From NCBI RefSeq assembly GCF_058153355.1, contig NZ_CM177019.1: a stretch of 64,000 nucleotides of DNA; one strand, given 5' to 3'. Below are positions 10,315-34,590 of this stretch, one piece after another. Below the pieces are notes generated by a model. The model made no database searches, was not told the DNA's origin, and saw only the letters and a program-made list of their open reading frames with translations. Each line of letters begins with the position of its first letter. Positions within the stretch are counted from its first letter, which is position 1. A program made the translations under genes and the position numbers.

Positions 10315-12306
10315 TTACTCAAGCAAGGTTAATAATTGTTCGCAAAGCAAAACGCAGTTATTCATTGCTTCTCCCCGTGCCTCGCCTTCTGTATTACGAA
10401 ATTGTCCCAACACATGTGCCAGCCGATAAAAACCCATCGCGGTGAGTTCATTGACCAGCAACTCTGACTGACTAATGGCACTCTGTTCCTGATAGCGCCA
10501 GCCATTATGGAGCAGTTGAATAAGCAACGCCTGACAGCGCATCAGTAACTGATGAGTGGTAGACGGTACAGGCAGAACGCTGGCAGAAGGTAGCGGTGCC
10601 ACAGGCGCAGTTTCTGCGTCCAGCGCCCAGGCGCGGGTTTTTGTCATCATCACCCGTGGTTCCAGTGTCAATTGCCCCTCTACAAAACTGACAAAGCCAG
10701 AAACCAGACTCACGGGGTCGTCTGTTTGTTGTAACAGAGCTGCCATGCGTTCAACGGCAAAAGGAGAACAGGCAGATGCCGGAAGGGATAACGTCAGCAC
10801 ATTATCGTCACCTTCGCCACTGATTACCTGCGCATCCAGTGTCTGCCGACTGCTGTCCCAACCGAGTGAAATGCACTCTTCTACTGGCAGAATAAATAAG
10901 TTATCGACCTGGTTAAGCTGTCGTATGGCGGCTGGCGGACGTTGGCGTAAATATTCCCGCAAAGCCACAATGCCCGGCTGGCGCAGTGGTGCGCTCAACA
11001 TTTGCCAGGCATCAGGCGACAGCGGAACAACACTGCTTAAGCGGTTGCGGGTAGCTAATAGCAACTCGCCATCAGCACTGCGTTTTGCTGCTTGTGAAAC
11101 AATTTGCCCACCCGCCAGCGCGCCAGCCTGAAAACTAAACAGCCGCCGTTTTGCCGCTGGAGAGTTATCCTGTTCACTTCTCGGCCAACTGCGCGAAAGA
11201 TGCAAAATACTGCCGGTGTCGGGATCGGTGAACCAGATGCGTAAACCATACCGCTCATTATCCTGCCAGCAACGCATACCTAGTGACACCAGCCGCAAAT
11301 GATCAAGCTTTGCTTCGCCAGCAATGCCTGCGCCAATGACCGTGCGCCACGGTATGGGCGGTACTTCACCGACACTGTCACGTCGCGCCATCTCTTGTGC
11401 ACTGTTCAAGCGACTGGTTAACGCCGCAAGCTGGCACAAGCATTTTCCGGCATGATAGTAGCTGGCGCGGGCGTGGAAGGCATCAACGCTTGCCCGTAGC
11501 TGTCGTAGTGATTCACTTACCCAACGCCAGTTGCAGCGTTCCGCCGCTTGCTGCGCGCGGCTGAAAGCGGCCTCGTAGTGGATTGACGGTTGGCTGATGC
11601 CTCCCAGCCATAATGCCTGACTTAATTGCTGAACATATTGACGACATGCTTTACCTTCGTCGCTGGAAAACGGATCGTCAGATGATGTGACGTGTTCACT
11701 GTGCATCTGCCAGATCAAATGAGTAAATTCTGCTTGTTGATTTTTGGCCTCGACGAAGGCCTGCACAGCCAGTGCTACGTGTTCACACAGCGTTCCTTCA
11801 ATACAATCACAACGGGCGAAACGAATGCTGCTGCGGGAATAAAAACGCACATCGCTCATCGGTAAGCGGGCAGAGGGAATTTCGCCCGGCGTGCAGAACA
11901 ACTCAATGGTGATGCCTTTAGCGACCAGCGCCTGCGCGCGTTTGCGCGTGGTATTGGGCAGGGTAGCCAGTTCTTCCTGCCAGATTGCCGGATCCCACTC
12001 TTCTTCTTTTTCCGTAGGCTGGGCGGTGGCACAAAGTCGTTGATAACTTAACACCAGCATCACGCGATGACGGCACATGCCGCTGGCCCCGCAGCTGCAT
12101 TGAGCCTCTTTCAGTGCCTGACTGTTCGCCAGCCGGGTACGGACACCGTCACTGAACGTGGCGATTAAAGCGCCGTTCTCATGGCAGATTTCCGGGACAT
12201 TGCCATTTTCCAGTTCCTTAAGGCTGCGCTTCACAAAACCAGCATTGCTTAACGCCGTCAGGGCCTGCGGTGTCAGTTCTAATAATTCCGGACGTAGTGA
12301 ATTCAT
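10315..12306 (-). CDS. yehQ: SWIM zinc-finger protein YehQ with two CxC…CxH motifs
   Basis: The ATG at 12306 overlaps the yehP TGA (ATGA). The SWIM signatures are CSCGASGMCRH and CDCIEGTLCEH. The track ORF extends upstream to 12411 inside yehP, and I treat that as a spurious extension. Confidence 0.8.
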   Translation of the reverse strand: MNSLRPELLELTPQALTALSNAGFVKRSLKELENGNVPEICHENGALIATFSDGVRTRLANSQALKEAQCSCGASGMCRHRVMLVLSYQRLCATAQPTEKEEEWDPAIWQEELATLPNTTRKRAQALVAKGITIELFCTPGEIPSARLPMSDVRFYSRSSIRFARCDCIEGTLCEHVALAVQAFVEAKNQQAEFTHLIWQMHSEHVTSSDDPFSSDEGKACRQYVQQLSQALWLGGISQPSIHYEAAFSRAQQAAERCNWRWVSESLRQLRASVDAFHARASYYHAGKCLCQLAALTSRLNSAQEMARRDSVGEVPPIPWRTVIGAGIAGEAKLDHLRLVSLGMRCWQDNERYGLRIWFTDPDTGSILHLSRSWPRSEQDNSPAAKRRLFSFQAGALAGGQIVSQAAKRSADGELLLATRNRLSSVVPLSPDAWQMLSAPLRQPGIVALREYLRQRPPAAIRQLNQVDNLFILPVEECISLGWDSSRQTLDAQVISGEGDDNVLTLSLPASACSPFAVERMAALLQQTDDPVSLVSGFVSFVEGQLTLEPRVMMTKTRAWALDAETAPVAPLPSASVLPVPSTTHQLLMRCQALLIQLLHNGWRYQEQSAISQSELLVNELTAMGFYRLAHVLGQFRNTEGEARGEAMNNCVLLCEQLLTLLE

Positions 12307-13439
12307 GACTGAAGATTCTCCGCAAGCCAGGTAGCCAGTTCGCCCGGCGTCATTGCGGCTATTTGTGCGCCGACATTTACCAGCGCCTGGGCTGTATCGC
12401 GGTCGTAGCAAGGTGTTGCGGTGCTATCGAGCGCTGCCAGTCCCAGCACTTTGATGCCGCTCTGGACACACTTTTTCACCTGATGCGTCAGCAATGATGA
12501 TGAACCCCCTTCATAAAAATCGCTCACGAGGATGATGACGCTTTTCGCTGGTTGTTCAATAAGTTGCCGACCATATTCCACGGCGCTGGCGATATTGGTC
12601 CCGCCATCCAGCTGTACTTTCATTAATAACTCTACCGGATCGGCAACGTCTGCCGTGAGATCGACGACGCTTGTGTCAAAAGCGACCAGATGGGTGCGGA
12701 TACCGGGTAACTGCCATAAACAGGCCGCCATCACCGCTGAGTGGATCACCGAATCGACCATTGAGCCGCTTTGATCAACCAGTAACACCAGCTGCCATTG
12801 TTCGCTATGGCGTTTAATTCGGCTGTTAAAGCGGGGGGATTCGATATACAACTTGCCGTGTTGCGGGTGCCAGTGTTGCAGGTTGGCGCGCAGAGTACTT
12901 TTGAAATCGAAATTACGTGCCAGTGGAATAAATGAGCGGCGACGGCGATCGCGGACACCTGAAAAAGCCTGACGAACTTCCTTTGCCAGTCGCGCCATAA
13001 TTTCTTCAACAACCTGGCGCACTATCCGGCGGGCGGCAGCCAGCACTTCGGGATTCATCAGATGTTTGGTGTGCAAAACGGCGCGTAGCAGGCTTTCAGA
13101 AGGCTGCATACGCTCCAGCACGTCGAGATTCGTCACCACATCTTCAATGCCGTAGCGCAGTACGGCATCGCTTTCCAGCCGCTCAATCACCCGTTGCGGA
13201 AATAGTGTGTGAATACTGTTGATCCACTCAGGGGTGGTGAGATTTGAGTCACCTAATCCACCGGAGCGTTCACCACGCTGGAGCCGTTCAGGATCGCGCC
13301 CATACAGCCACTCCAGCGCGTGGTCTATCTGCCGGGCATTGTCATCCAGCCCACAAAGCGTCGTTTCTGCCGCTTCGCCAAGAATTAATCGCCAGCGTTG
13401 TAGCTCACGAGTGGTCAGAAGATCGTTCAGTTCAGACAT
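12303..13439 (-). CDS. yehP: von Willebrand factor A (VWA) domain protein YehP
   Basis: The ATG at 13439 (MSELNDLLTTREL…) overlaps the yehM end by 8 nt. MIDAS-like residues are LLVDQSGSM … GGTNIASA … LVSDFYEG. Length is 378 aa. Confidence 0.85.
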   Translation of the reverse strand: MSELNDLLTTRELQRWRLILGEAAETTLCGLDDNARQIDHALEWLYGRDPERLQRGERSGGLGDSNLTTPEWINSIHTLFPQRVIERLESDAVLRYGIEDVVTNLDVLERMQPSESLLRAVLHTKHLMNPEVLAAARRIVRQVVEEIMARLAKEVRQAFSGVRDRRRRSFIPLARNFDFKSTLRANLQHWHPQHGKLYIESPRFNSRIKRHSEQWQLVLLVDQSGSMVDSVIHSAVMAACLWQLPGIRTHLVAFDTSVVDLTADVADPVELLMKVQLDGGTNIASAVEYGRQLIEQPAKSVIILVSDFYEGGSSSLLTHQVKKCVQSGIKVLGLAALDSTATPCYDRDTAQALVNVGAQIAAMTPGELATWLAENLQS

Positions 13440-15711
13440 GGAAAACTCCCCAGTGTTGCAGTGATGCCAGTGCCTGCTGTTCGAGTTGTTGATGATGTGC
13501 AATGGCTTGCGGTGGACAATGCAACGGCATTTGCAGCGCTGAAACGGGAAGCTGTGCGAGCTGGTAATGCTCAAGCACCTGATGCGCCAGCGTCCCGCGT
13601 TCTCGTGGTGGTAGCCAGGCCATCGCCGCGCGTAAATCGGGCAGGGCGTTAATAAAATCGTCGTCACTCAGTTGATTTAAATGACTACTGAAACCGGCGA
13701 TAAATGCCGGCTGACAGGCCAGTTGATGGCGGGCCAGCGCCAGCAAACCGTGCAGCGCCTCGCCAGATTGTGCCGGGGATAATTGTGCCAGCATCGTCAG
13801 CGCCGCTTCGGCACTGGCGTTGGGATGTTCCAGACGCATCAGCGCGCCAAGGGCCGCACCGCGATCCAGCGCTGGGGCATGAATCGCCTGACTGCGACGT
13901 TCCAGTAAGGCTACCGCCGCAGAAAGCGAAACGCCGGGTAAATTAACGCCGCTATTTAGATCGCGCAGGATATGGCAAAGCGCCTGCCAGCTATGCAGGT
14001 GAGCGTGAAACTCCTTCTCATCCGGCCTGCCGTTGGATTCACATAGCCACAGTGTGCGATCGATAGCCGCGTATAACGTCGTCTGTAATATCTGCGCGCC
14101 TTGCATACCGCTGATTTCATCGAGCTGCCACAAGGCGTAAAGCACTTCCAGCGCCTGGCCCATTTCGGCAAACTGATTTTCCTTGGCGATTAATAATGTG
14201 AGTTGTTCCAGTAATTGCTGACTGAAGGACGCCAGACCCGCTAACGCGGCCTGGCTAAGACATGTGGTGATGCCGCTGATTCCACCCGCGTCCAGCATAT
14301 CGGCTTCTAATTTATTGCGTGCGGCCTCCTGGAGTGTGGCACCAAAGCAGGCGGCTTCAATCAATGCCGCATGTTGGCTAAGTGGCTGGGTTAATGTCCA
14401 GCGTTCTTCACCGTTGCCCGCCAGCGTCAGTGTACTTCCTTGCTCGCGCACAATGCCGGGAATCTCCAGTATTACCAACTGATGTAGCACCTGACTTTGC
14501 GCCAGTCCATCGGGGGTAAAGCGATTTAAGGTAAGCTCCGCCGGAAGAGAGATTCCGGTACGTTCCAGTTCGTAGGTGACATCTTTTGGCAGAGGTGGCT
14601 GTGGCGTCGAGGGGGCAAGTTTACCGAATCCGTCACCTGCTAATGTGTCTATCAACGTTACCAGTATCGGATCGGTATCGGGATGAATAACGTCGCGATA
14701 GCTCCACGGCAACGGCGCATTCAAGGCTTCTTTAATCAGCGAGCCTGCTATGGCATCCAGCCAGTCAGTGCGTAACGGTAGTGTATGACCGCGCAACTGT
14801 GCCAGCGCCATCGCATGTAAATGAGCGGCAGCCATATCCGCGGTTGAAGCAGGCAATTTGTGCTGGCGCAAACGGGTAAGAACCGTTTTTAGTAGTTGTT
14901 CACCTGCCTGCTGCAAGCCCCACCGCCAGCACCAGTTTTGCCAGACCGGGGCAGGCATTCCTGAAAGGTATCCTGCCAGCACATCAAGGCGCTTTTCACT
15001 GTATGGCGTGAGATAGCAACCTGTAACGGCATCATCCTGTGAGAGCAATTCTGGCTTGTTAATTTCTTGCGGGCATTCGCGCCACATTTTTGCCAGTGCC
15101 GGAGCGTGCCAGCCTCCGCAGACGACTAATACGTCGCCATTATTTTGCTGCATCGCCCATGCAATCCAGCGGGCCATAAAGGCTTCGCGCTGACGATTGA
15201 GTGCATCGCCGGAGGCGTCGCCCCGCAGTTGTGCAAAATAGTGCGCCAGTGCAGAGGGTAATATAGTTTGCTGGCTTTCATCTTCGAACAAGTGATCCCA
15301 CAAGGTGTCGCTGTTATCCATGCGGGTGGCACGCAGCAGAAAGGCCTGGCTTTCCTCTTGCATATCAGGCGAATCATCCTCTTCTTCACTTTGTGCCCAG
15401 CAAGGCAAATCGATGAAGTAAGTTTGTGCCTGAATACGACGTGCGGCTTGTAGCGCCTGCCACTCCGGCGAAAATTCAGCAAATGGCGTCCAGGCACCAC
15501 GCCCGGGGGCCGCACCGTCCTGATACTGGCAATAACTGTAAATAGCTACCGGAAGCTGGTGGGCTAACAACAGTTCGTCTACCCGGTCATTAAAATCAGC
15601 CGGGCCTTCAATCAACACGTATCGTGGCCGCTGGCTTTCGATTAACGATTTCACCAGCCGGGCGCAGGCCGGACTATGATGCCGGATGCCGACAATTAAC
15701 GGCTCGCTCAT
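13432..15711 (-). CDS. yehM: 759-aa uncharacterised protein YehM (DUF5682-like, largely helical)
   Basis: The ATG at 15711 (MSEPLIVGIRHHSPACARL…) lies 10 nt after the yehL stop and is preceded by GAGGAAA. I recognise no catalytic motif. Confidence 0.8.
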   Translation of the reverse strand: MSEPLIVGIRHHSPACARLVKSLIESQRPRYVLIEGPADFNDRVDELLLAHQLPVAIYSYCQYQDGAAPGRGAWTPFAEFSPEWQALQAARRIQAQTYFIDLPCWAQSEEEDDSPDMQEESQAFLLRATRMDNSDTLWDHLFEDESQQTILPSALAHYFAQLRGDASGDALNRQREAFMARWIAWAMQQNNGDVLVVCGGWHAPALAKMWRECPQEINKPELLSQDDAVTGCYLTPYSEKRLDVLAGYLSGMPAPVWQNWCWRWGLQQAGEQLLKTVLTRLRQHKLPASTADMAAAHLHAMALAQLRGHTLPLRTDWLDAIAGSLIKEALNAPLPWSYRDVIHPDTDPILVTLIDTLAGDGFGKLAPSTPQPPLPKDVTYELERTGISLPAELTLNRFTPDGLAQSQVLHQLVILEIPGIVREQGSTLTLAGNGEERWTLTQPLSQHAALIEAACFGATLQEAARNKLEADMLDAGGISGITTCLSQAALAGLASFSQQLLEQLTLLIAKENQFAEMGQALEVLYALWQLDEISGMQGAQILQTTLYAAIDRTLWLCESNGRPDEKEFHAHLHSWQALCHILRDLNSGVNLPGVSLSAAVALLERRSQAIHAPALDRGAALGALMRLEHPNASAEAALTMLAQLSPAQSGEALHGLLALARHQLACQPAFIAGFSSHLNQLSDDDFINALPDLRAAMAWLPPRERGTLAHQVLEHYQLAQLPVSALQMPLHCPPQAIAHHQQLEQQALASLQHWGVFHV

Positions 15712-15721
15712 GCATCTTTCC

Positions 15722-16810
15722 TCACGGCAGGCGGTGGCGAGCTTGATAATAAGCCTGCCAGTGAGCTTCTTTATGTGTAGCGACACGTTGTTCGAAGTAA
15801 CGGCGCAGACGTGCGCGATCTTCTTCGTTATCTTTGACGATGGTTCCGGCAATACAGTCCACCAGGTCGGCTGGCTCCCCCGCGCGATTCGCTAAAAACC
15901 AGGCGCGGACGCCCACGGCGTGGGCCACGTTAACGGCTTCAGCGGTGGACATAATCGCTGTAAGGGTATCCATTGACGTTTTCTTTTCGCCGTTGGCACG
16001 CAGATCGCGGAAGGTGCGTACCAGTAACTCAAGTACCGCGTCAGGCACTTTATGCGGAATACCGCTATGGGCCAACAAACGCGCCGAAGCACTGGCGACC
16101 AGTTCCAGCTCCTGGGCGAAATCCATAATCGGAAAAACCGTTTCAAAATCGAATCGGCGTTTTAGTGCCGCGCTCATTTCATTAACGCCGCGATCGCGGG
16201 TATTGGCGGTGACAATAATATTAAAGCCTTCCCGCGCATAGAGCTGACTGGCTTCACCAGTGAGTTCCGGCACCGTCATAACCCTGTCAGAAAGCATACC
16301 TAACAGACAGTCTTGTACTTCCAGTGGTGTACGCGTTATCTCTTCAAAACGGACAATTTTGCCGTCGCGCATTCCCTGGTAGAGCGGGGCAGGGACCAGC
16401 GCTTCCGTTGACGGACCATGATTAATAAGCAGGGCGTAGTTCCAGCCGTACTTGATTTGATCTTCGGTGGTAGATGCGCCGCCCTGGATAGTTAACCCAG
16501 CATCGCCGCTAATAGCGGTTGCCAGTAATTCAGACAGGAGAGATTTTGCGGTGCCAGGTTCCCCCACCAACATCAAACCGCGCCCGGTAGCAAGAGTGAC
16601 TAACATGCGTTCGACAGCGGAGGGACTAATCACGACTTTACGGCTGATATTTTGCGCGCTATCGCCAAGAATAAAAGAACGGGCCGCAGGCAAACTTAAC
16701 TGCCAACCGGGCGGGCAAGGTGCGTTATCATTTTGCTTTAATTTTGCCAGTTCATCGGCGTATAACACAGCGGCAGGCGGACGCTGCAGATGATTATTCT
16801 GCGGTGACAT
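15722..16810 (-). CDS. yehL: MoxR-class AAA+ ATPase YehL
   Basis: Contains Walker A LMLVGEPGTAKS and a MoxR-like C-terminal segment of the AAA core (VTANTRDRGVNEMSAALKRRFDF). Length is 362 aa. Confidence 0.88.
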   Translation of the reverse strand: MSPQNNHLQRPPAAVLYADELAKLKQNDNAPCPPGWQLSLPAARSFILGDSAQNISRKVVISPSAVERMLVTLATGRGLMLVGEPGTAKSLLSELLATAISGDAGLTIQGGASTTEDQIKYGWNYALLINHGPSTEALVPAPLYQGMRDGKIVRFEEITRTPLEVQDCLLGMLSDRVMTVPELTGEASQLYAREGFNIIVTANTRDRGVNEMSAALKRRFDFETVFPIMDFAQELELVASASARLLAHSGIPHKVPDAVLELLVRTFRDLRANGEKKTSMDTLTAIMSTAEAVNVAHAVGVRAWFLANRAGEPADLVDCIAGTIVKDNEEDRARLRRYFEQRVATHKEAHWQAYYQARHRLP

Positions 16811-16921
16811 ATATTCATCCCTGAAATGTATTAATCAAATAAACGATATTTTACGCGCAATAAATGTTTGGCGCATTAGTTGTTTGAGCGGAAAATATCT
16901 GGAAAGCAGATCACAGTAAAT

Positions 16922-17002
16922 AAAAAAACCTGCTGGTGAGGCAGGTTCTTTTATTTACTACTTTGACGATAACTTGCTGATTGTGCAACATTTCGTACCA
17001 AC
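16922..17002 (-). ncRNA. orzO: Orz-like antitoxin sRNA (predicted ~81 nt)
   Basis: Minus-strand promoter: TTGCAA (17037-17032), 17-nt spacer, TATAAT (17014-17009). The predicted start is the G at 17002. The first 18 nt (complement of 16985-17002) pair with 17151-17168 of the zorO leader. The RNA ends at a stem aacctgc/gcaggtt followed by a U7 tract (16922-16947). Confidence 0.65.
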
Positions 17003-17008
17003 GAATGA

Positions 17009-17059
17009 ATTATAACCATATCCACATCCCGTTGCAATTCACTAAGCGAGATTTATAAT
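17009..17059. promoter_or_regulatory. back-to-back promoters of orz (-) and zor (+) sharing one palindromic -35 hexamer
   Basis: TTGCAA at 17032-17037 is its own reverse complement. A TATAAT lies 16 nt downstream on the plus strand (17054-17059) and another 17 nt downstream on the minus strand (17014-17009). Confidence 0.6.
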
Positions 17060-17150
17060 CGTGCCCGTTGGGAGGTTGTGCCGGATTGAACCAATTTCAA
17101 GTCCTGGCTGCCGGACGGGGGGTGCCGCAGGTGGTGCCCTGATCCGGAGA

Positions 17151-17168
17151 GCAACGTTTCGTACCAAC
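17151..17168 (+). promoter_or_regulatory. predicted Orz pairing site in the zorO 5' UTR
   Basis: gcaacGtttcgtaccaac is a direct repeat of gcaacAtttcgtaccaac (16985-17002). An RNA made from the opposite strand of the upstream copy pairs over 18 nt with one G-U wobble. Confidence 0.6.
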
Positions 17169-17240
17169 ATACGTAAACCAGTATCGACAGGCAGTGTAAG
17201 GGTAAGGTGCTGGTGTTGCGCTCCTTAATAAGGAGAGCGG

Positions 17241-17330
17241 ATGGACACGCTGACACAAAAGTCAACCGTGCTCATTGCCGTACTGGAGTTATTAGTGGCT
17301 CTGTTGCGGTTGATTGATTTGTTGAAGTAA
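17241..17330 (+). CDS. zorO: 29-aa hydrophobic type I toxin, ZorO-like
   Basis: Manual translation gives MDTLTQKSTVLIAVLELLVALLRLIDLLK*. A strong SD (AAGGAG) lies 5 nt upstream. The predicted leader is ~174 nt. The peptide is nearly identical to the EHEC ZorO peptide as I remember it. It is below the ORF-track cutoff. Confidence 0.7.
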   Translation: MDTLTQKSTVLIAVLELLVALLRLIDLLK

Positions 17331-17351
17331 CGGGCAAATTGAAACGCATCT

Positions 17352-17376
17352 AAGGGGGAATACCGTTTCCCCCTTT
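17352..17376. terminator. bidirectional hairpin between convergent zorO and yehK
   Basis: aagggggaa-taccgt-ttccccctt forms a 9-bp stem and is followed by ttaat on the plus strand. Confidence 0.5.
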
Positions 17377-17383
17377 AATAAAG

Positions 17384-17704
17384 CTATTTTTCTATTTGTT
17401 GGATGAATATATTTTGTAGTTCACGATTAAAAATTGCTATTACAGTTTTAGGTGATTCACCTCGTAATTTACGCTCATCAATAAATTCATCTCTTATATA
17501 AATCAACGCATCATTTATTAGCGGGTCGACATCTTCTCGATCACGTTGATGAAATGTTGGATGTAGCCGGAATCGCTCCAACCGGTAGACGGAACCAGTA
17601 AATAATTCAGAGCATTTATGGATCTCAAGTCTGAAGGAAAACGGATCTTCAGGTACAGGGACTTCATAATCATAAGTAGCGACCAGCTCTTTTTGCACGA
17701 TCAT
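17384..17704 (-). CDS. yehK: 106-aa uncharacterised protein YehK
   Basis: The ORF lies 60 nt downstream of yehI on the same strand. The sequence is recognised as YehK. I recognise no domain. Confidence 0.75.
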   Translation of the reverse strand: MIVQKELVATYDYEVPVPEDPFSFRLEIHKCSELFTGSVYRLERFRLHPTFHQRDREDVDPLINDALIYIRDEFIDERKLRGESPKTVIAIFNRELQNIFIQQIEK

Positions 17705-17764
17705 CGCTTTTCCCGGTGGTAAGTCGTGTTGATAACGGGCAGTCGCATCACTGCCCGCTGTGTT

Positions 17765-21421: not shown

Positions 21422-21424
21422 TCC

Positions 21425-24400
21425 TTATTCAAACAGGGCTTCGATGTCGTTAATTAACTCGCTAGCGGTGATGTCATCGAGTGCGGAGAACTGCGCTTCC
21501 TGTGTTGAATTAATCCCCCAGCCATAGCTTTCTGCTTTGCCTTCCCATAGCCACAGCTTGCTTAAGAGTTGCTCGGCACTGAGTTCGGCTGGCGACATAC
21601 CAACTGCAAATCCTTCATCGATTTCCATGATTAATGACCAGCGGCCCAGAGGTTTGATCATCCAGCCGATCCAGCCACCGTCCTGCGGTTCACCACGCAT
21701 CCAGCCTTTATTCGCCAGCCCCATTACCCGACCGCTCGGGCATTTTCTGCCTGCCCAGCGGGTCAATTCGCTGGCATTGCGCTCGGTTTCTGTCAGGGCG
21801 TAACTGTTACGGTCGAGCTGGCGGAACGGCGGTAGCAGTTCGTAGTCGGCAAAAAGCTGACCAAAGGCGGCAGCATCCGTGGGTGATATTTCCAGAACGT
21901 GAGGAATGCCAACAGAGATATCGCCTTCCGGCAGGGTGAAAAGATCATCGTCAGCGGTGCTGTAGCTGTTATCTTCCGCCACACGGAAGCACGCCAGTAA
22001 CTGGTTGTCTGCGCTATAAATGCCCCAAATCAGACGGCGGGTTAAGTGGCAGACCAGCGGATGCTCAACCAGAAAGAGCTGAAAGTTTTCTGGCGACCAG
22101 CGGCGGCGCAGGCACATGGCGGATTCCAGCCTTGCCACCTGCTGGGCGGCAACGGTACGCGCATCTTTTTTCAGCAGTTTGTAGCGGTTAACTGCATCGT
22201 TCGCTTGAGTTTCATCATCGCTTTTGTTCGGTTTAGGCAAGTCTTTCAGGCGGCTGCCGGAAGCATCACGCACAAACGGTTTTAAGGTTTCATCAAAGCT
22301 GACGGTGAACTGCCGTGGCCCGAAATCCAGCAGCAGCGAACCGTTATCATCCAGACCGAGATCCGGTGCTAACCGGTCTTCAAGCTCCGCCACCGTGAGT
22401 TCGCGGCTCTCGGCAATGTCGGCAATTTTTTCTTTTGCCCGCTCCTGTAATGCTTTGAATTTCAGTTTCTGGGCGATGCCGTTAAGCTGCATCAGGGCGA
22501 TATCACTACCGATAGCAGCGAGAATATCCAGCCCGACGGTGGCGCGTTTATGCTGGGATTCACCAGGCCAGGCGCGAATCAAAGGCGTCAGTTTGCGGGC
22601 GGTATCATCGTTGCCGAGAACACCTAACGCAGTGAACGCCCAGCTTTCTTTCGACGGTGCGCCAGCGGTCTGCCAGGCGGTAAACAGATCCCAGGCAAAT
22701 TCAGCCAGTGAGTCGGCGGTACAGGCATCTTTCACCTGCAATAACCCCGCATACAGAGCCTCTTCCTGAGGGAAGCGGAGCATTTCACCGAGGTGGAGGA
22801 GGGCGTTATCTGGCAGTGATTGGGCGTTTGCTTTTAATACCGGGCGTGTCCAGAGCGATGGCTGATAAAAGGCCGGAAGTGTCGGGATTTTAGTCGGGTG
22901 ATTATCTAAGGGATCGAGCGCAAGTAGAGCGTTCACCGCATCGGTTACTTCCGGCTGGTTATAACGCTGGGCGATTTCTTGCAGTAATGACGGATAACCA
23001 CTTTCAATCAACATACGTAAGGCGGCGCGGGCGTTATCCTGGGCTTCACCAGCTTTGCCGAGTGCCGCAGGCAACAGGCCGATAATGGCATGTTCCGGAT
23101 ATTTCAGCAGCCAGGTGCGGGCGTCTTGTCGTAGAGTTTTGAGTTTGTTAAAGGCGCGGGCGACGGCAGGAGCCAGTTCCGTTGCGGCAAAATAATTAGC
23201 AACCGCAAAACCTTCTTGAGGGTAGCGTGAAAACGAGTGTAGAAAACCACTCATACCTGCCAGTCGCAAATAAAGCATGACAGGTTTTACCGCGGTATGC
23301 GGCTCTTTGCTGAGAAACTCCCATAGTTTAATCGCTGTTTGCATAGGTAAAAAGGGAAGTGAGTTGAGATGCCACTCCCCCTGATACGGTGCATGGTGGG
23401 CTTTAAACATTTGGATGAGTGTAGCGAAGTCCTCACGTTCCCATGCGTCAATTGCCGAGTCAGAAGCGCCGATATATTTATATGTGTCAAAATCCCAGCG
23501 GCGATACCCCAGCGAGTAAAGGAAATCTTTAGCACCTTCACCTGGCTTATGCGATTCCCAGTCCCAATGAGTTTGAAACTCTTTTGCTTCTGTGTCGGTT
23601 ATTGTGCATATGGATTTGAGTTTGAGCGGTGCTAAATCCAACACCGGAATCGTCGATTTTTTCTTTTTCGAAAGCCAGGGAGGTAAGACTAATACGGCTG
23701 GCAGTAGAGCGGCGCAGGCATGGTTTGACGGTTGTATCAGTTGTTGCTGGCATGATTTCAGCACTTCAACTGCGGCTGTCGAGAGCCAGGGAGTGACCTG
23801 TTCTGCCAGTGCCGGTTGCGAGATAAGCATCGTCATTAGCATAATGCGCCAAGTATTCTCTTCTTTTTGCGCAAGAAGTTCCGCCAGTGCCGCCAGTGCT
23901 GCGTGTGGGAACGCAGCGCAAGCTTTCGTCATCCGATCGTGACAGCGTTTAGTTTGCCCGGCTACACGTATGAGCAGTGTTAATGCGAACGGATGATTGA
24001 TATGACGCAATACATCTGCGCAGTAGTCACTTGCGGCATAGGGAGCAAATCTGGGCAGGGCTGCAACACCTTGCTCCTGTAATACGGTGGCTGACAATAT
24101 CGCACCACAATAGTAATCATCAAAAATGGCATATGGCTCGTGATATTTTTCTAATGAGGCAAGAATGTGCTCATCAGTCGCCACTATTTTTAGCCACTCA
24201 AGCGAGGGTAATTTTTTTTTCCCCAGTAGACGCTGGGCAATTTCATGTGCAATTTCTGGTTTTTCGGGTAATAACAAAGCAATTAATGGTTGCCGCCATT
24301 CTGGAATATGTGGAATTGCGGCAATAAGTTTTTGTGCACATTTTTGCCAGAGAGACTCTTCCGCCAGTGATAAATGTTTCCGTAGGCGTAATTCAAAACT

Positions 24401-25213
24401 GGAATATTGCTGCAGGTTATCAGGTGCAATACCAGACGGCAGAATAATAATGGTATTATTCGCATAATCCCATTCAATATCAATCTGTTGAAGATGTATT
24501 ACTACATCAGTAGCATATTCCAGGCCACCTTCCTGAACGAGCTGATCCATAACATCCTCACGCTCTTTATATCTCGTGCACTTCAGTTCAAGTGCCGTGA
24601 GTACAGCCATTACTGGTGATGGTAACTGTGTTGTTTTCAGGCAGTCGATCTGACTGAGCGCCTGGGAGATGGCGTTTTGCCATTCTAAAGAACAGGCGCT
24701 GAAGTCAAATGTGGCTGTTTTATTATCCCGTTGCAACACGCTACAGGCTAAGCGGCGTAACTGGGTCAATTCGTCTGCTTGCTGAACAGGAACTCCGGGA
24801 AAGCGGCGATGGCTTAACGTGGTGTGTACAACTTCGGGCGGAAAAACGACAGCAATATCTTTCGCCAGCCACGGTAAAACATCATCTGTATTTTTGTCAG
24901 CCACACGGGCTTCTGCTACGCAAAAGGGTTGTTCCTGAATAATGGTGGATAAGGCCGCTACCTTGAGAGAATCCGTTACCGTTTGGGAAGGTTGCAAAGA
25001 ATTATCCTTCGCTTGCCCCACATACCCCTTCTTCACCTTCTCCGCAATCAGCCTCAGTTCCGCTTTTTCCGCCGCCGCAGCATCAGCAAAGCTTTTTACC
25101 TGGCTTTGCCCGTTGGTACTGACTTTGCCCCAACTAATATGCAGCTCGTTTCCCTGTTGCTCCACTGCCCAGAATTTATGTGATTTTTCGTCCTGATAAA
25201 TATAGGTTTTCAT
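21425..25213 (-). CDS. 1262-aa MolR/YehH-family protein: N-terminal WGR domain, helical-repeat middle, DUF4132-type C-terminus
   Basis: The N-terminus MKTYIYQDEKSHKFWAVEQQGNELHISWGKV…AEKVKKGY has the WGR signature. The C-terminal block LDFGPRQFTVSFDETLKP…RRWSPENF…FADYELLPPFRQL is conserved. The start lies 12 nt after the upstream paralog. Confidence 0.85.
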   Translation of the reverse strand: MKTYIYQDEKSHKFWAVEQQGNELHISWGKVSTNGQSQVKSFADAAAAEKAELRLIAEKVKKGYVGQAKDNSLQPSQTVTDSLKVAALSTIIQEQPFCVAEARVADKNTDDVLPWLAKDIAVVFPPEVVHTTLSHRRFPGVPVQQADELTQLRRLACSVLQRDNKTATFDFSACSLEWQNAISQALSQIDCLKTTQLPSPVMAVLTALELKCTRYKEREDVMDQLVQEGGLEYATDVVIHLQQIDIEWDYANNTIIILPSGIAPDNLQQYSSFELRLRKHLSLAEESLWQKCAQKLIAAIPHIPEWRQPLIALLLPEKPEIAHEIAQRLLGKKKLPSLEWLKIVATDEHILASLEKYHEPYAIFDDYYCGAILSATVLQEQGVAALPRFAPYAASDYCADVLRHINHPFALTLLIRVAGQTKRCHDRMTKACAAFPHAALAALAELLAQKEENTWRIMLMTMLISQPALAEQVTPWLSTAAVEVLKSCQQQLIQPSNHACAALLPAVLVLPPWLSKKKKSTIPVLDLAPLKLKSICTITDTEAKEFQTHWDWESHKPGEGAKDFLYSLGYRRWDFDTYKYIGASDSAIDAWEREDFATLIQMFKAHHAPYQGEWHLNSLPFLPMQTAIKLWEFLSKEPHTAVKPVMLYLRLAGMSGFLHSFSRYPQEGFAVANYFAATELAPAVARAFNKLKTLRQDARTWLLKYPEHAIIGLLPAALGKAGEAQDNARAALRMLIESGYPSLLQEIAQRYNQPEVTDAVNALLALDPLDNHPTKIPTLPAFYQPSLWTRPVLKANAQSLPDNALLHLGEMLRFPQEEALYAGLLQVKDACTADSLAEFAWDLFTAWQTAGAPSKESWAFTALGVLGNDDTARKLTPLIRAWPGESQHKRATVGLDILAAIGSDIALMQLNGIAQKLKFKALQERAKEKIADIAESRELTVAELEDRLAPDLGLDDNGSLLLDFGPRQFTVSFDETLKPFVRDASGSRLKDLPKPNKSDDETQANDAVNRYKLLKKDARTVAAQQVARLESAMCLRRRWSPENFQLFLVEHPLVCHLTRRLIWGIYSADNQLLACFRVAEDNSYSTADDDLFTLPEGDISVGIPHVLEISPTDAAAFGQLFADYELLPPFRQLDRNSYALTETERNASELTRWAGRKCPSGRVMGLANKGWMRGEPQDGGWIGWMIKPLGRWSLIMEIDEGFAVGMSPAELSAEQLLSKLWLWEGKAESYGWGINSTQEAQFSALDDITASELINDIEALFE

Positions 25214-25225
25214 TGCTAATTCCTT

Positions 25226-28200
25226 TTAATTAAACAGTGATTCAATGTCGTTAATCAGCTCGCTGGCGGTGATGTCGTCGAGTACGGAGAAAGTGGGTGA
25301 GGATTGCTTACCATAGCGATCATAAGGGGCGATGATTTTTACGCTTTCGACAGGCAGCAGGTCGCTATACCCCGTTTCGCCATAAATTAATGAAAAAGGT
25401 TCTGTTTCAAGTTCGAGAGCGCCATAAGGGGTAGATTTGCGCATCGCATAGACGCTGCCGCTTTCTTCCAGACGTTGCCAGCCTCTGCGTTCCAGCCCGA
25501 CAATGCGTCCGGCCTGGCAGAGACGTCCGTTCCAGCGTGACAATTCATGGACATTACGTTCGTTATCAGCAAGGTGGTAACTACCACGTTCGAGCTGTTG
25601 GAAGGGGGGAAGCAGTTCGTAATCAGCGTAAATTTGCCTGAATGCAGCGACAGATTCAGGGGGGATTTCCAGCATATGCGGAATACCGATGTTTCCTGCT
25701 GGTAGCGTGAATAGCTCATCCTGCATATCGCTGTAAGTGCTGTCTTCTGCGACCCGGAAGCAGGCAATCAGCGTGTTTTCCTCAGTATATACTCCCCATA
25801 ACAGCCGTCGGGTTAAGTGACGTACCAGCGGATGCTCCACCAGAAACAGGCGGAACTGTTCTGCCGTCCAGCGTCTGCGCTGGCACATAGCCTGCTCCAG
25901 ACGATCAATCTGCTGACTGGCAATGGCGCGCACATCTTTCTTCAATTGTTTGAAGAGGTTAACGGCGTCAGTTGCCAGTGTTTTATCATCGCTCTGATTT
26001 GGTTTGGGTAAATCTTTCAGGACTTTGCCGTTTGCATCGCGCACTACAGGTTTTAAGGTTTCGTCAAAACCAACGGTGAATTGACGTGGGCCGAAATCCA
26101 GTATCAGCGAGCCACTGCTATCAAGCCCTAAATCTGGAGCCAGGCGGTCTTCCAGTTCAGCCATTGTCAGTCCGCGATTTTCGGCGACCATATTGATTTT
26201 GTCGCGGGCGTGTTCCTGCAATGCTTTGAATTTAATTTTTTGTGCAATGCCATTAAGCAGCATCAGCGCAATATCGCTACCGATACTGGCTAACACATCC
26301 AGCCCAGAAACCGCACGTTTATGCTGGGATTCACCCGGCCAGACCCGGATAAGCGGGGTTAGTTTACGCGCGGTGTCGTCATTGCCTAAAATCCCCAGCG
26401 AGGTAAATGCCCAGTTTTCTTTTGCGGGCGCGCCAGATTCCATCCATGCCGTGTAGAGATCCCAGCCAAAGTCAGCCAGTGATTCCCGGGTGAAGGTCTC
26501 TTTGATGATCGCCAGCCCAGCGTAGGAGGTAATGTCGCGTGGAAAGCTCAATATTGTGCCCAGGTGGCGCATAGCGTCATCGGGCAGAGGCAGGTTGTTA
26601 CTTTTAAGCCGTGGTCTGCGCCATAAGGTGAACTGATAAAAGCCGGGCAGTGGGGCGATTTTTGCAGGATATTCTTCCAGTGGATCGCTATCGAACAATG
26701 TTGCCAGCGCAGCTAAAACATCAGGTTGATTATATCCCCGGGCGATTTCCTCAATCGTTTCTCGCTGGTTTAAATTCACCAGCAGGCGAAGCGCCTGGCG
26801 GGCACAATCACGATCTTTTCCTTTTTTGCCCAGGGCCACAGGAAGTAGCCCGGCGGCGGCATGGTGTGGGAAGTTAGCCAGCCATTTTCGGGCATCTTCA
26901 TAAGACATTTTTTTCTGTAATCGCTGCGCCATCGGTAATGCTAATTCGCTGACGCCCAGGAAAAGGGTGAATATCCACAACTGTTGTGGCTTACGTTGCA
27001 GACATTTCATAAACGCAGGAATGGCCGCATCACCAAAAATCGCCAGAATTTCTCTCTCGCCGGAGAATTGCTCTTCATTAATTATTTGATTGAGAAAAGA
27101 AATAGCATGCTGAGTGGGTAGGAAGCAGAGCGCGTACAACTGCCAGTGTCTGCTTCCTTTATTATGGTATTGCGCAAACTCTGCTTTCAGCGCGGGGAAA
27201 TCGAAACGTAACAGGGCCTCAACTGCGCTTTGTGGCATTATTTTTTTTTCGTATTGTTCTTCTCCGGTTCTGCTCCATTCCTTAAACCCCAGTCGCCAAA
27301 GGATTTGCTGTTCTGGCGTTAAAGGGATGAAAGACGTTTCCCAGCTTTCCTTTTCAATTAGTGGCAGATCGGTAAATAAGGTTTGCTGTGATGCCTGATA
27401 TTTCGCGATTTCACTGAATCTGGATATGTCAGTGTGACTGATTAACTCTGTAATTCCAGGTGTGATGTCAGTGACGGAAGGGATGGGAAGTACCGGTAAA
27501 TCAAATACGGGTATTACATTCTTTTTCTTATTTATTGCCCACGGTGGAGCGACAAGCAGTTCTGGCAACATATTCGCAGTGGCATACTCACATTCTTTAG
27601 CTACTGACTGAGGACGACATTCAGATAAGATGCCTGCCGCTTTAGCATTAACCCAGGGAATGACGTCGCGTACTAACTCTGGCGTGACGGTAACCAGTTT
27701 GACAAGCGCGTTGCGCCACTGTGCATCTTCATGTATTGCCAGCAAAGTAGCATAAGCGGCAATAGCCGCAGCGGGATGTTTTTGGCAGGCTTTGCTTAAG
27801 TATTCCAGGTGCTTTTTCTTGCCATTTACACCGAGGATCAGAATTTGAATCGCATCCGGGTGATTCGTTTTCCATAGCCATTTGACAAGATCTTCAGTCT
27901 CGCTGATGCGCTCGAAGAGATAAGTGGGATTGTCAGAATGCTCTTCCGTAAACTCAGTAAGTATCCGGCTTACACCGCGCCCCCCATTATTTGCCAGCAA
28001 CATTGCCAGATAAGCGCGAAAATCACGATACAACGGTGGGAAGTCGTATTTTTCTGCTGTAGTCAGAGCTATATCATCGGTTACTACCACTCTTAACCAG
28101 GTTATCGCCGGAACGTTTTGGTCTGCATAGCGTAGAGCCATAGCATTGGCAATATCCGGGCGTTCAGGGAGCAGTAACGCGGCAAAAGGTTGCCGTGCTG

Positions 28201-29023
28201 GGGATAGCGTCGGAATAGCAGTAAGCACTTTATCCACACAGCGTTGCCACTCATCTTCTGAAGCGAGTGAAAGATGATGACATAGACGTTGATGCCAACT
28301 CGGTAGCGATTCTGCTTCGTGATTAGGTGGAATGATGGTGGTTACTGCGCCTTTTACTGGTTTATATTTGAGTTGAAGAGCGAGAAGGGCGATTTCAACG
28401 GCACTTTCCAGACCACAGCGAATGACTAAGTCATCGACCAGTTCATCTTGAGAGTAAGAGTTCCAAAAGCCCCAGAGCAATGCCGCATCAGATTGCGCAC
28501 TCCCTGTCTGTTTATTACCCAGAATTCGCATTTGTACCTCAGCAAAAGCCTGCTGCCAGTTTTCTGGATAAGAACGGTAATTGTTGTCGGGGTCATATGC
28601 CCTGGTGTTATTCGCGATGCGCTTCCATATTTGACCATCTTTGTGCAGATAATTGATATCTCTGGGGCGAGAGCGATGTGGAAAAGCAAATCGGTTAATA
28701 TCGTCGGTTAGCGGAATGACTGCATCATCAGCCAGCCATGGGCGTTTGTTTTTACTCTCGGGTGAAGTTTTAACGTCAGGAGTGACTTTGGTGACGGGGG
28801 ATATATGCACGTTTGCCGAAGCGTCTTCCACATAGCCTTTTTTCGTTTTCTCTGCGATAAGCTTCAGTTCCGCTTTTTCCGCTGCTGCAGCATCAGCAAA
28901 ATTTTTTACCTGGCTTTGCCCTTGGGTACCAACTTTTCCCCAACTGATATGCAAATCGTTACCTTGCTGCTCCACCGCCCAGAATTTATGCGATTTTTCG
29001 TCCTGAAAGATAAAGTGTCTCAT
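25226..29023 (-). CDS. 1265-aa MolR/YehH-family protein: N-terminal WGR domain, helical-repeat middle, DUF4132-type C-terminus
   Basis: The N-terminus is MRHFIFQDEKSHKFWAVEQQGNDLHISWGKV…AEKTKKGY. The C-terminal block is LDFGPRQFTVGFDETLKP…RRWTAEQF…YADYELLPPFQQL. It is the first gene downstream of metG on the same strand. Confidence 0.85.
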   Translation of the reverse strand: MRHFIFQDEKSHKFWAVEQQGNDLHISWGKVGTQGQSQVKNFADAAAAEKAELKLIAEKTKKGYVEDASANVHISPVTKVTPDVKTSPESKNKRPWLADDAVIPLTDDINRFAFPHRSRPRDINYLHKDGQIWKRIANNTRAYDPDNNYRSYPENWQQAFAEVQMRILGNKQTGSAQSDAALLWGFWNSYSQDELVDDLVIRCGLESAVEIALLALQLKYKPVKGAVTTIIPPNHEAESLPSWHQRLCHHLSLASEDEWQRCVDKVLTAIPTLSPARQPFAALLLPERPDIANAMALRYADQNVPAITWLRVVVTDDIALTTAEKYDFPPLYRDFRAYLAMLLANNGGRGVSRILTEFTEEHSDNPTYLFERISETEDLVKWLWKTNHPDAIQILILGVNGKKKHLEYLSKACQKHPAAAIAAYATLLAIHEDAQWRNALVKLVTVTPELVRDVIPWVNAKAAGILSECRPQSVAKECEYATANMLPELLVAPPWAINKKKNVIPVFDLPVLPIPSVTDITPGITELISHTDISRFSEIAKYQASQQTLFTDLPLIEKESWETSFIPLTPEQQILWRLGFKEWSRTGEEQYEKKIMPQSAVEALLRFDFPALKAEFAQYHNKGSRHWQLYALCFLPTQHAISFLNQIINEEQFSGEREILAIFGDAAIPAFMKCLQRKPQQLWIFTLFLGVSELALPMAQRLQKKMSYEDARKWLANFPHHAAAGLLPVALGKKGKDRDCARQALRLLVNLNQRETIEEIARGYNQPDVLAALATLFDSDPLEEYPAKIAPLPGFYQFTLWRRPRLKSNNLPLPDDAMRHLGTILSFPRDITSYAGLAIIKETFTRESLADFGWDLYTAWMESGAPAKENWAFTSLGILGNDDTARKLTPLIRVWPGESQHKRAVSGLDVLASIGSDIALMLLNGIAQKIKFKALQEHARDKINMVAENRGLTMAELEDRLAPDLGLDSSGSLILDFGPRQFTVGFDETLKPVVRDANGKVLKDLPKPNQSDDKTLATDAVNLFKQLKKDVRAIASQQIDRLEQAMCQRRRWTAEQFRLFLVEHPLVRHLTRRLLWGVYTEENTLIACFRVAEDSTYSDMQDELFTLPAGNIGIPHMLEIPPESVAAFRQIYADYELLPPFQQLERGSYHLADNERNVHELSRWNGRLCQAGRIVGLERRGWQRLEESGSVYAMRKSTPYGALELETEPFSLIYGETGYSDLLPVESVKIIAPYDRYGKQSSPTFSVLDDITASELINDIESLFN

Positions 29024-29120
29024 TCTGCATCCCTGTAATTTTATCCAGTTGAATGCAGATGCTACCAGTATTTATGCGGGTTAGAGAGAGACAAAATCGC
29101 AAGAAAACAACTTTAGGAAT

Positions 29121-29154
29121 TTATAAAGAAAAGGCGCTGTCGATACAGCGCCTT
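29121..29154 (-). terminator. Rho-independent terminator of metG
   Basis: On the minus strand, aaggcgctgt-atcg-acagcgcctt forms a 10-bp stem followed by TTCTTTAT. Confidence 0.75.
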
Positions 29155-32438: not shown

Positions 32439-32466
32439 CGCGCATTAACCTTTTTGGTTGTTTTTC

Positions 32467-32509
32467 ATACACCGCAGAGATGTTACATTGATGCGGTGTA
32501 TTTGTTTTT
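32467..32509 (+). terminator. Rho-independent terminator of mrp
   Basis: atacaccgca … tgcggtgtat forms a 10-bp stem followed by ttgttttt. Confidence 0.7.
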
Positions 32510-32700
32510 GCCGCATTAATGAACACTTATTTAATGCTGCGAATATTCTGCGGACCTTCGTCCGAAACTCTATAAAGTCGATTGATCGTACAGGCAATGC
32601 TTCATTATCATCCTTCGTGGCTGTGTAGTGGATGTACAGCTATAGTTTGTTATGCACTCATTCTATCCAGGCATAACCTTTACTACAGGGATAACGTTCA

Positions 32701-32982: not shown

Positions 32983-33277
32983 TTTGCCACCCTGGTTTTT
33001 TAAGCGGATTTAGAAAGCTGAAATCATTCGTGTGAATGATTTCAGCTTTTTTATTGATATTAATAATACCATTTAAAAAAATCTGCATTAATTAATAGAT
33101 GTGATAAATATTTAATATGCTTAAGTATTTGTTGTATTTATATTGCAATAGTTAATTTGTTTTAAATCAATAAAACAATATGTTTACATTGCGGCAACTT
33201 TTTTGATGTGAGAAATTTGTTTCCAAGAGATACAGACTCTTAACAACCAAAAAATAAATTTTATTAAGGAACATATT

Positions 33278-33820: not shown

Positions 33821-33855
33821 TAAATAAAATTTCAAATTTCTCCAGGTAATAAACA

Positions 33856-33884: not shown

Positions 33885-33900
33885 TTTAAGAGGCATTAAG

Positions 33901-34575: not shown

Positions 34576-34590
34576 TTGCAGGAGCTACCT

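Follow-up and report, generated by a model that had tools for sequence, protein, structure and literature searches.

Evidence that yehLMPQ and the neighboring giant DUF4132 proteins of Escherichia form one conserved MoxR–VWA cassette with a putative hydrolase and a possible link to DNA damage

The stretch of DNA considered here, 64,000 nucleotides (nt) of contig NZ_CM177019.1 and referred to below as the window, is a segment of an Escherichia chromosome with 92–96% identity to E. coli. By the annotation of E. coli EC42405 and K-12, its genes follow the order btsSR-yehS-yehR, yehQ-yehP-yehM-yehL, yehK, three genes for giant proteins, and metG-apbC, and the subject of this analysis is the central part, the Escherichia molR/yehF-H–yehI–yehK–yehLMPQ locus, which in the window carries a zor-orz insert. 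An earlier note, made from the DNA letters of the window, had described eight same-strand genes running from 29023 down to 10315, and all eight open reading frames (ORFs) are confirmed on the minus strand. The giants are G1 (25226–29023, 1265 amino acids (aa)), in which Pfam recognizes WGR at residues 5–69 and DUF4132 at residues 999–1182; G2 (21425–25213, 1262 aa), which has WGR and DUF4132 and is yehH-like; and G3 (17765–21421, 1218 aa), the yehI orthologue, which has DUF4132 and no WGR. They are followed by yehK (17384–17704, 106 aa), yehL (15722–16810, 362 aa; AAA_5, a MoxR-class AAA+ ATPase), yehM (13432–15711, 759 aa; DUF5682), yehP (12303–13439, 378 aa; VWA_CoxE), and yehQ (10315–12306, 663 aa; SWIM). 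The earlier note had seen recognizable domains in every product, which holds by Pfam for seven of them but not for YehK, and WGR on the giants, which holds for G1 and G2 but not for G3. The comparisons described below indicate that the motor (YehL), the VWA protein, the DUF5682 protein, the SWIM protein, and the giants very probably constitute one conserved functional unit, present in at least four phyla.

The genes are closely spaced. From G1 to yehM the gaps are 12 nt (G1/G2), 3 nt (G2/G3), 60 nt (G3/yehK), 573 nt (yehK/yehL), and 10 nt (yehL/yehM); the first 8 nt of yehP are also the last 8 nt of yehM, and yehP and yehQ share an ATGA overlap. These junctions had all been read correctly before, the largest as a spacer of about 570 nt, and the hairpin said to precede yehK is located at 17736–17757, in the 60-nt gap, with an 8-pair stem that includes 6 G-C pairs.

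The conservation of the locus was examined with YehM as anchor, the most specific marker, in a scan of one genome per bacterial species that returned 80 loci, to which all eight proteins were mapped. Among the proteobacterial species loci with enough flanking sequence, DUF4132 giants, numbering one to four per locus, directly adjoin yehL-yehM-yehP-yehQ on the same strand in 75 of 77; they usually lie upstream of yehL and, in six Burkholderia species, after yehQ. Other phyla were reached by tblastn of annotated plasmids, and the five-gene set is found in all in Alpha-, Beta-, Gamma-, and “Delta”-proteobacteria, Actinomycetota, and Bacillota. In Streptomyces sp. NBC_00073 the order is DUF4132-AAA-DUF5682-VWA-YehQ homologue, with 4-nt overlaps that include the giant/AAA junction, and this five-gene order recurs in Bacillus mycoides p322 and in Dactylosporangium, whereas in Sinorhizobium the giant is placed between the DUF5682 and VWA genes. 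Adjacency that is kept despite rearrangement in Sinorhizobium and Burkholderia points to function rather than history. Moreover, a VWA gene accompanies the YehL-type AAA gene in every locus that extends far enough (in the window, yehP lies two genes 3' of yehL), the DUF5682 protein of S. atratus carries an entire VWA domain C-terminally, as a YehM-YehP fusion, and five of eight long representatives of the DUF5682 family are DUF5682-VWA_CoxE fusions. These fusions and the permutations of gene order add support for a single unit. The neighborhood survey across phyla that the earlier note had proposed thus finds the modules together outside Enterobacteriaceae; its unverified remark that SWIM, AAA, DUF5682, VWA, and DUF4132 genes are neighbors in actinomycetes was correct (Streptomyces, Dactylosporangium), and its suggestion of a true functional unit is supported by co-inheritance, permuted orders, and fusions.

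A type II cassette, in which giants are missing, has the order SWIM (∼460 aa)-DUF5691-AAA-DUF5682-VWA and is found in Deinococcus, Hymenobacter, Rhizobium, and Methylosinus (loci L084, L085, L088, and L089). In Hymenobacter there is no separate SWIM gene and a single 1009-aa protein has DUF5691 in its C-terminal half, and a small extra ORF (78–203 aa) separates the AAA gene from the DUF5682 gene in both Deinococcus and Hymenobacter. Both cassette types are present in Nonomuraea gerenzanensis. The association between giants and the rest appears to be asymmetric, a giant implying the module less strongly than the module implies a giant. At 18883–20888 of one metagenomic chromosome (L094), a two-gene insert separates the cassette DUF5682 and VWA genes and encodes an AAA_15/AAA_21 (SMC_N-like) ATPase plus, on the opposite strand, its partner of 272 aa, resembling a small defense-type pair.

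Structure prediction suggests that the N-terminal ∼240 aa of YehM has a Tiki/TraB/ChaN/EreA-like hydrolase fold with a putative active site. Fold comparison of the predicted structure identifies a fold shared with the Tiki/TraB/ChaN/EreA superfamily, with ChaN among the top matches, and the C-terminal ∼500 aa is modeled as a HEAT-like solenoid that matches the folds of symplekin, TAF6, PP2A-A, and Vps35. The motifs GxRHHSPxC, IEGPxDFN, and CGGxHxP are invariant, and a TraB/Tiki-type fold is predicted from them also. The series RHH...E...SPE...D...E...RE is invariant in both cassette types and five phyla; G8-x-R-H11-H12 and E35 do not vary across five phyla, and each of the seven compared sequences that extends over H202 retains the G(G/A)xH motif there. 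The catalytic pattern of the superfamily is GxxH...E...GxxH. Because the putative catalytic residues do not vary between the two cassette types or among five phyla, the cassette probably contains an enzyme, the head of YehM. The DUF5682 family comprises 3416 clusters at 50% identity, and a PDB sequence search, profile query included, gave no solved relative of YehM.

YehL is the proposed motor. It is a single module that matches AAA_5 across the full Pfam profile (6.5e-34), with the Walker A motif GEPGTAKS at residues 83–90; ATP hydrolysis and a hexameric state are predicted by analogy. Its bpMoxR match falls below threshold (18.6 bits versus a cut-off of 27), and in a PDB sequence search its nearest solved relatives are the AAA modules of midasin (E 2.7e-08). 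It has 72–76% identity to homologues in most Betaproteobacteria, 60% in Streptomyces, and 47% in Bacillus, and for YehL and YehP the identity between Escherichia and Streptomyces or Sinorhizobium is 57–62%. YehP, which by the same analogy is proposed to be the adaptor of the motor, matches VWA_CoxE at 1.4e-71 over profile positions 1–222 of 222, has an intact metal ion-dependent adhesion site (MIDAS) motif, DQSGS, at residue 222, and also gives a weak match to a cobaltochelatase subunit; the Walker A sequence and the DxSxS MIDAS motif named in the earlier note are therefore both present. Within yehP, at 12566–12581 (minus strand), the window has GTGGAATATGGTCGGC, one base different from the K-12 yehP cassette GTGGAGTATGGTCGGC (GAG to GAA), which is reported to promote +1 ribosomal frameshifting that gives a product 75 aa shorter (PMC2790909). 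The base change is predicted to weaken the Shine-Dalgarno-like stimulator.

YehQ matches SWIM in Pfam (3.3e-07) and has CxC...CxH motifs at residues 70 and 166, so that both of the Cys/His motifs of the two SWIM fingers noted previously are present, although the second finger is below the Pfam threshold (E 0.09). Its C-terminal ∼480 aa has no family match, it has only 27–37% identity to most homologues outside Enterobacterales, and a PDB sequence search gave no solved relative. A fused DUF5691 in this C-terminal part is not supported, the hhalign probability being 0.1% when 24 aligned YehQ sequences were compared with four DUF5691 proteins; against the type II SWIM proteins the YehQ alignment gave 5.4%, and both values come from shallow alignments. 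YehK has no match in Pfam, PADLOC, or further family searches. Among the loci compared, yehK was found by tblastn solely in those of Escherichia (L001–L005), and it is therefore probably not part of the conserved cassette.

The giants are best described, from models and alignments, as probable non-enzymatic HEAT-like scaffolds in which the tail is constant, the middle diverges fast, and the N-terminal head, usually WGR, can be swapped. G1 (Pfam WGR 1.5e-18, DUF4132 6e-51) has a helical and variable middle and a conserved C-terminal HEAT-like and DUF4132 module, and the N-terminal WGR of G1 and G2 matches PDB entry 2ra8 (E 2e-19) and NF047464. G1 and G2 are 48% identical overall, but the identity is 71% in the WGR head, 22–44% in alignment columns ∼100–800, and 50–77% in the C-terminal third. 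Over their last 423 aa, the giants have 54–63% identity to homologues in Proteobacteria other than Enterobacteriaceae and 47% in Streptomyces. An AlphaFold2 model of G2 residues 650–1262 (mean predicted local distance difference test score, 93.5) shows a helical-repeat solenoid followed by an alpha/beta region, which gives generic repeat-protein matches only, with no significant Foldseek hit and no enzyme-like match. In Pfam the giants match WGR and DUF4132 only, with no CobN/BchH homology, and their middle region has zero matches even at E ≤ 10. It may be that the tail serves in docking and the variable middle is the recognition body. Among the giants tested, WGR is present in those of Serratia, Lysobacter, Streptomyces, and Sinorhizobium and absent, as it is from G3, in those of Variovorax, Burkholderia, and Bacillus. 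A Burkholderia giant without WGR (L037, 16541–20386) has at its N terminus a weak GntR-type winged-helix match (E 8.5e-4, below threshold), which hints that different DNA-binding heads are swapped onto one scaffold.

In K-12 (L100, 2196474–2210944) the locus is degraded: yehF encodes no more than a WGR fragment of 274 aa and yehH has become a pseudogene, but G3 is represented by yehI, which is intact; sequence comparison identifies G1 as the apparent intact counterpart of the broken K-12 yehF/molR, and yehQ is annotated there as 614 aa versus 663 aa in the window. Among 5426 complete E. coli genomes, at a coverage of at least 80%, yehLMPQ is found in 5202 (96%), G3 in 5213 (96%), G2 in 4008 (74%), and G1 in 1629 (30%). 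G1 is the most variable gene and, where present in E. coli, mostly has 80–90% identity. EC42405 and the window share an identical G2 protein, yet their G1 proteins have only 88% identity, a pattern suggestive of mosaic exchange among the giants of the array. The description of the giants in the earlier note as expanded and diversifying agrees with these data, copy number and the middle region both being variable. A homologue search with full-length G2 returned ∼93%-identical E. coli proteins only and was of no use for diversity, whereas a profile of diverse C-terminal modules recovered diverse giants with a bias to fragments of <770 aa. The full-length search gave >120 separate clusters, nearly all single-member, all from E. 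coli and at ∼93% identity, from a database said to be clustered at 90%; this excess reflects either very high allelic diversity or a clustering artifact for long proteins. A plasmid of Rhodococcus sp. USK13 (L090) encodes a DUF4132 giant that is split and stands alone; a complete Wadjet (JetABCD-like) operon is ∼2 kb away, and genes for a GIY-YIG nuclease and a zeta toxin are nearby.

The region 5' of the giants contains a site resembling a LexA (SOS) box, AACTGGATAAAATTACAGGG, at 29031–29050 on the minus strand, 8–27 nt 5' of the G1 start codon. On its upstream side the G1 transcription unit is bounded by the metG terminator hairpin (29131–29154, minus strand), which has a 10-pair stem and then a run of T residues. 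The identical 20-mer precedes yehF/molR in K-12, and its core is one mismatch from CTGT-N8-ACAG; molR is among the LexA-regulated genes with a known SOS box (PMC6590174), and AACTGGATAAAATTACAGGG is the putative LexA site of G1. The interval −300 to +30 of the first giant was scanned in 24 loci with a placeable start, including Erwinia, Serratia, and Betaproteobacteria, and contained a one-mismatch box in 4 and an exact box in none; that of Klebsiella grimontii, at −24, is the sole site positioned as in Escherichia. Because the box is confined to Escherichia and K. grimontii, SOS control appears to be lineage-limited, and the scan rules it out as a family-wide trait.

A separate connection with DNA damage is seen in Deinococcus. 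The DdrO targets of Deinococcus radiodurans include DR2173, a WGR protein, and DRA0166, a DUF4132 protein, the induction of both by mitomycin C being dependent on IrrE (PMC8533742). On a D. taeanensis plasmid (L084), a palindrome resembling the radiation/desiccation response motif (RDRM), TTACGCCAGAAACATAA, lies at 7723–7739, the sole match in 25 kb versus 0.05 expected; it directly follows a predicted TTGACA-17-TACAAT promoter and is ∼20 nt upstream of the first gene of the SWIM-DUF5691-AAA-DUF5682-VWA cassette. Two unrelated damage regulons, those of LexA and DdrO, thus appear from these sites to touch the family.

Taken together, these features are tentatively explained by a damage-linked MoxR–VWA remodeling or processing machine, with the giants as interchangeable adaptors that steer it to nucleic acid-associated targets. 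This is the best explanation that we can offer, although it falls somewhat short of an even chance, and it should be recognized that mechanism and role are much less certain than the claim of a single unit. In such a machine YehL would be an ATP-driven ring, to which YehP would couple via its MIDAS site; these roles are assigned by likeness to the characterized MoxR-VWA pairs. YehM, bound to YehP, would be scaffold and catalytic (hydrolytic) subunit in one, supplying the catalytic head and the HEAT arm, and the giants, either clients or adaptors that can replace one another, would dock by their constant tail. Recognition of a nucleic acid-associated target would fall to the WGR head and variable middle, so that the giants would bring motor and hydrolase to it, and expression of the targeting part would be raised by DNA damage, through LexA in Escherichia and DdrO and the RDRM in Deinococcus. 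Damage induction combined with nucleic acid targeting suggests work on DNA- or RNA-bound proteins, and the likeliest job would be damage-linked remodeling or processing of such a protein. A more specific version, which we consider doubtful, is that the cassette, induced by damage and driven by ATP, would extract or cleave proteins that have become trapped on nucleic acid, for example in DNA-protein crosslinks or in nucleoprotein complexes that have stalled; the WGR giants would find the lesion or structure and choose the target, YehL/YehP would unfold or pull it, and the Tiki-like head of YehM would hydrolyze it. If true, it would be a functional analogue of eukaryotic p97/Cdc48 with SPRTN/Wss1, built from unrelated parts.

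Several observations weigh against a damage-linked machine of this kind. No experiment ties any cassette protein to DNA damage tolerance. Beyond Escherichia and one Klebsiella, no other promoter-proximal LexA-like box occurs among the 24 loci scanned, and the Streptomyces locus has no LexA-type site. In B. mycoides p322 (L083, ∼7247–7260) there is a one-mismatch Cheo (LexA) box, AAACGTATGTTCG, ∼155 nt upstream of the DUF4132 gene, but with a chance expectation of ∼0.16 it is too weak to count as evidence for LexA. For a complete cassette the RDRM evidence is one locus, on the one Deinococcus plasmid with a cassette in PLSDB, and the D. radiodurans link concerns the genes for DR2173 and DRA0166, which may or may not accompany a MoxR module. 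yehL and yehM are H-NS-silenced in K-12 (PMC3686432), and yehLMPQ, behind the toxin-antitoxin insert, may be transcribed separately from the giants. The type II cassette works without giants, and stand-alone DUF4132 giants occur, in a sample biased to fragments, in Rhodococcus, Acetobacter, Chondrinema, Kitasatospora, and two other contigs. Nucleic acid binding by WGR is extrapolated from PARPs. Finally, the hydrolase assignment of YehM rests on predicted structure, and at E ≤ 10 its N-terminal 260 aa matches DUF5682 and, spuriously, CBM46, with no match to TraB_PrgY_gumN, Erythro_esteras, or Cofac_haem_bdg.

The earlier note had interpreted the locus as an NTP-dependent sensing or conflict system, and an anti-phage or anti-mobile-element role, in which the giants would sense an invader and the MoxR-VWA motor would activate YehM as effector (by abortive infection or degradation of invader proteins), is possible but not the best-supported explanation; we put it at well under an even chance. 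It would account for the variability of the giants, which number 1–4 per locus, diverge fastest in the middle region, and include one present in 30% and one in 74% of E. coli genomes. SOS control is common for toxins and prophage-linked genes, toxins use the Tiki/RRSP/HopBA1-type fold, and a type I toxin-antitoxin element lies within the locus; moreover, the locus region is an insertion hotspot in sequence type 131, one sublineage of which carries a blaCTX-M-15 transposon there (PMC9334617). Some loci are plasmid-borne or lie beside integrases, toxin-antitoxin genes, RHS/immunity genes, or Wadjet, and some of the plasmid loci are rich in mobile elements; a rough reading, with no matched control, of 127 flanking ORFs against PADLOC gave two strong matches to MzaA, one to SspH, and one to RT_UG29, the remainder looking like ABC-ATPase noise. 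However, at E ≤ 0.01 the eight proteins match none of the 5027 models of PADLOC-DB v2, and phages have no giant homologue, their single match to YehM being a doubtful one from a metagenomic contig that lacks annotation. The check for defense-island contexts gave a divided answer, since some loci do lie beside mobile or defense genes but the flanks are mostly housekeeping and stable within genera: they are syntenic among congeneric species of Variovorax, Massilia, Lysobacterales, Paracidovorax, and Klebsiella, and among the ten largest flanking ORFs seven are housekeeping (TonB receptor, FtsX/ABC, RpoD, FtsK, and others) and three have no family match. In addition, yehLMPQ and G3 are near-universal in E. 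coli, and the strong conservation of YehL and YehP across phyla is unlike that of fast-evolving immune genes. Direct evidence does not support the conflict interpretation, given the lack of PADLOC matches and phage copies, the stable flanks, and the presence of the module in 96% of E. coli genomes.

Stable chromosomal position and a highly conserved motor are also what would be expected of a maturation or cofactor-insertion chaperone like CoxD/CoxE, NorQ/NorD, CbbQ/CbbO, CobN-S-T, or BchH-I-D, with the giants as clients or substrate carriers. The combination of a ∼1250-aa partner with AAA_5 and VWA proteins formally mirrors CobN/CobS/CobT, YehP weakly matches a cobaltochelatase subunit, and ChaN, one of the top fold matches of YehM, binds heme; a chaperone would fit the old name “molybdate metabolism regulator,” and YehL and YehP belong to the AAA_5 MoxR and CoxE types, every characterized MoxR-VWA pair being such a remodeler (PMC3893208). 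Yet no conserved client enzyme lies beside the cassette, whose neighbors vary among genera, the giants have neither CobN/BchH nor any other enzyme domain or enzyme-like fold, and molybdenum genes did not respond alongside the Deinococcus homologues (PMC8533742). Tandem, diversifying paralogues with a DNA-binding head and SOS or radiation/desiccation response (RDR) control would be unexpected in a chaperone, and K-12 tolerates broken giants; we consider this explanation improbable. Least probable of all, and very unlikely, is that two unrelated neighbors have been brought together by accident in Escherichia, the giants being stand-alone MolR-type DNA-binding regulators and yehLMPQ an independent operon. 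The 573-nt spacer with its toxin-antitoxin insert, together with yehK, does divide the two blocks, yehL and yehM are under separate H-NS control, giants occur alone and type II cassettes occur without them, and WGR proteins have been described as MolR-like transcription factors (PMC7824862). Set against this are the adjacency in nearly all of the proteobacterial loci and in Actinomycetota and Bacillota, with gaps as tight as the giant/AAA overlap of Streptomyces, its survival of rearrangement in Sinorhizobium and Burkholderia, and a C-terminal module of the giants as conserved as a docking surface would be.

The remaining feature of the locus is the zor-orz type I toxin-antitoxin element (16922–17330) in the yehK-yehL spacer, which had also been recognized earlier. 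It comprises the OrzO-P antitoxin RNA at 16922–16995 on the minus strand (Rfam RF02083, 90.6 bits versus a gathering score of 60), divergent promoter-like sites at 17009–17059, and, on the plus strand at 17241–17330, a ZorO-like 29-aa ORF, MDTLTQKSTVLIAVLELLVALLRLIDLLK, the putative toxin gene. The spacer is 573 nt with one zor-orz copy in the window, 306 nt in K-12, and 1186 nt in EC42405; the difference between the latter two indicates that zor-orz is an insert and not a component of the cassette, and its copy number appears to differ among strains at exactly this spacer. Elsewhere in the window, positions 32000–43000 have a G+C content of 0.36–0.44 versus ∼0.50 in the rest; judging from gene order in E. 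coli, the yehE/yehD/yehC fimbrial genes downstream of apbC are expected to lie here.

YehL is one of seven recognized MoxR subfamilies and has no known role (PMC3893208); it is also one of the two MoxR ATPases of E. coli K-12 and stands for a whole subfamily. In the searchable literature there are no papers on DUF5682 and none that links SWIM, MoxR, VWA, and WGR, DUF4132 or yehLMPQ is mentioned in passing, and the five-part cassette, the YehM fold, the architecture of the giants, the DUF5691 variant, and the damage link are not described. Early surveys of MoxR and SWIM proteins reportedly noted parts of the neighborhood. What is new is therefore not the MoxR-VWA principle, which was already known, but these five elements; the YehM hydrolase fold, the DNA-damage regulation, and the DUF5691 variant without giants had not been seen in the earlier note either. 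The DUF4132, DUF5682, and DUF5691 families are uncharacterized, and for these y-genes there is now a concrete and testable hypothesis. If the damage link is true the cassette would represent a new class of SOS/RDR effector, and if the conflict reading is true, an immune architecture of a new kind, with HEAT repeats as sensors. For practical work a caution applies to K-12: because its giants are broken and its YehQ is shorter, null phenotypes in K-12 knock-out libraries may be uninformative and may under-report the system.

The closest known systems are the MoxR/VWA pairs RavA-ViaA, CbbQ-CbbO, NorQ-NorD, and CoxD-CoxE, in which, as here, an AAA_5 MoxR protein is encoded near a VWA protein with an intact MIDAS, that of the cassette being of the CoxE type; these lack counterparts of three further obligatory partners, the DUF5682 hydrolase-fold protein, the SWIM protein, and the DUF4132 giants, and the cassette, unlike them, has no client enzyme encoded nearby. 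The class I chelatases CobN-CobS-CobT and BchH-BchI-BchD provide a precedent for an AAA+/VWA motor that acts on a ∼1250-aa partner, but the giants have no CobN/Mg-chelatase domain and instead combine a HEAT-like solenoid and DUF4132 in tandemly duplicated proteins with DNA-binding heads. Midasin (Rea1), whose AAA_5 motor is a six-module ring with a MIDAS domain that pulls assembly factors off a nucleoprotein particle, is the best solved sequence relative of the YehL AAA module; it is a single polypeptide of 4700–4900 residues, whereas the motor, MIDAS protein, and adaptors of the cassette are separate proteins with no known ribosome link. The MoxR-vWA “ternary” conflict systems have in common with the cassette a MoxR protein, a VWA protein, and extra sensor-like partners, but compared with the MoxR-vWA-beta-propeller systems, bpMoxR is below cut-off here, no cassette gene encodes a propeller, and there is no recognized effector domain. 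The WGR of G1 and G2 matches those of PARPs and of bacterial WGR-repeat proteins (PDB entry 2ra8; Leptospira LIC_11051), where it likewise heads a repeat scaffold; the scaffold of the giants is HEAT-like with DUF4132, rather than leucine-rich repeats or a PARP catalytic domain, and some giants have no WGR. Finally, the head of YehM shares its predicted fold, although no Pfam sequence match, with Tiki, TraB-PrgY, ChaN, erythromycin esterase, RRSP, and HopBA1, and differs from the Tiki/TraB superfamily in being fused to a ∼500-aa HEAT-like arm and encoded within a MoxR-VWA operon.

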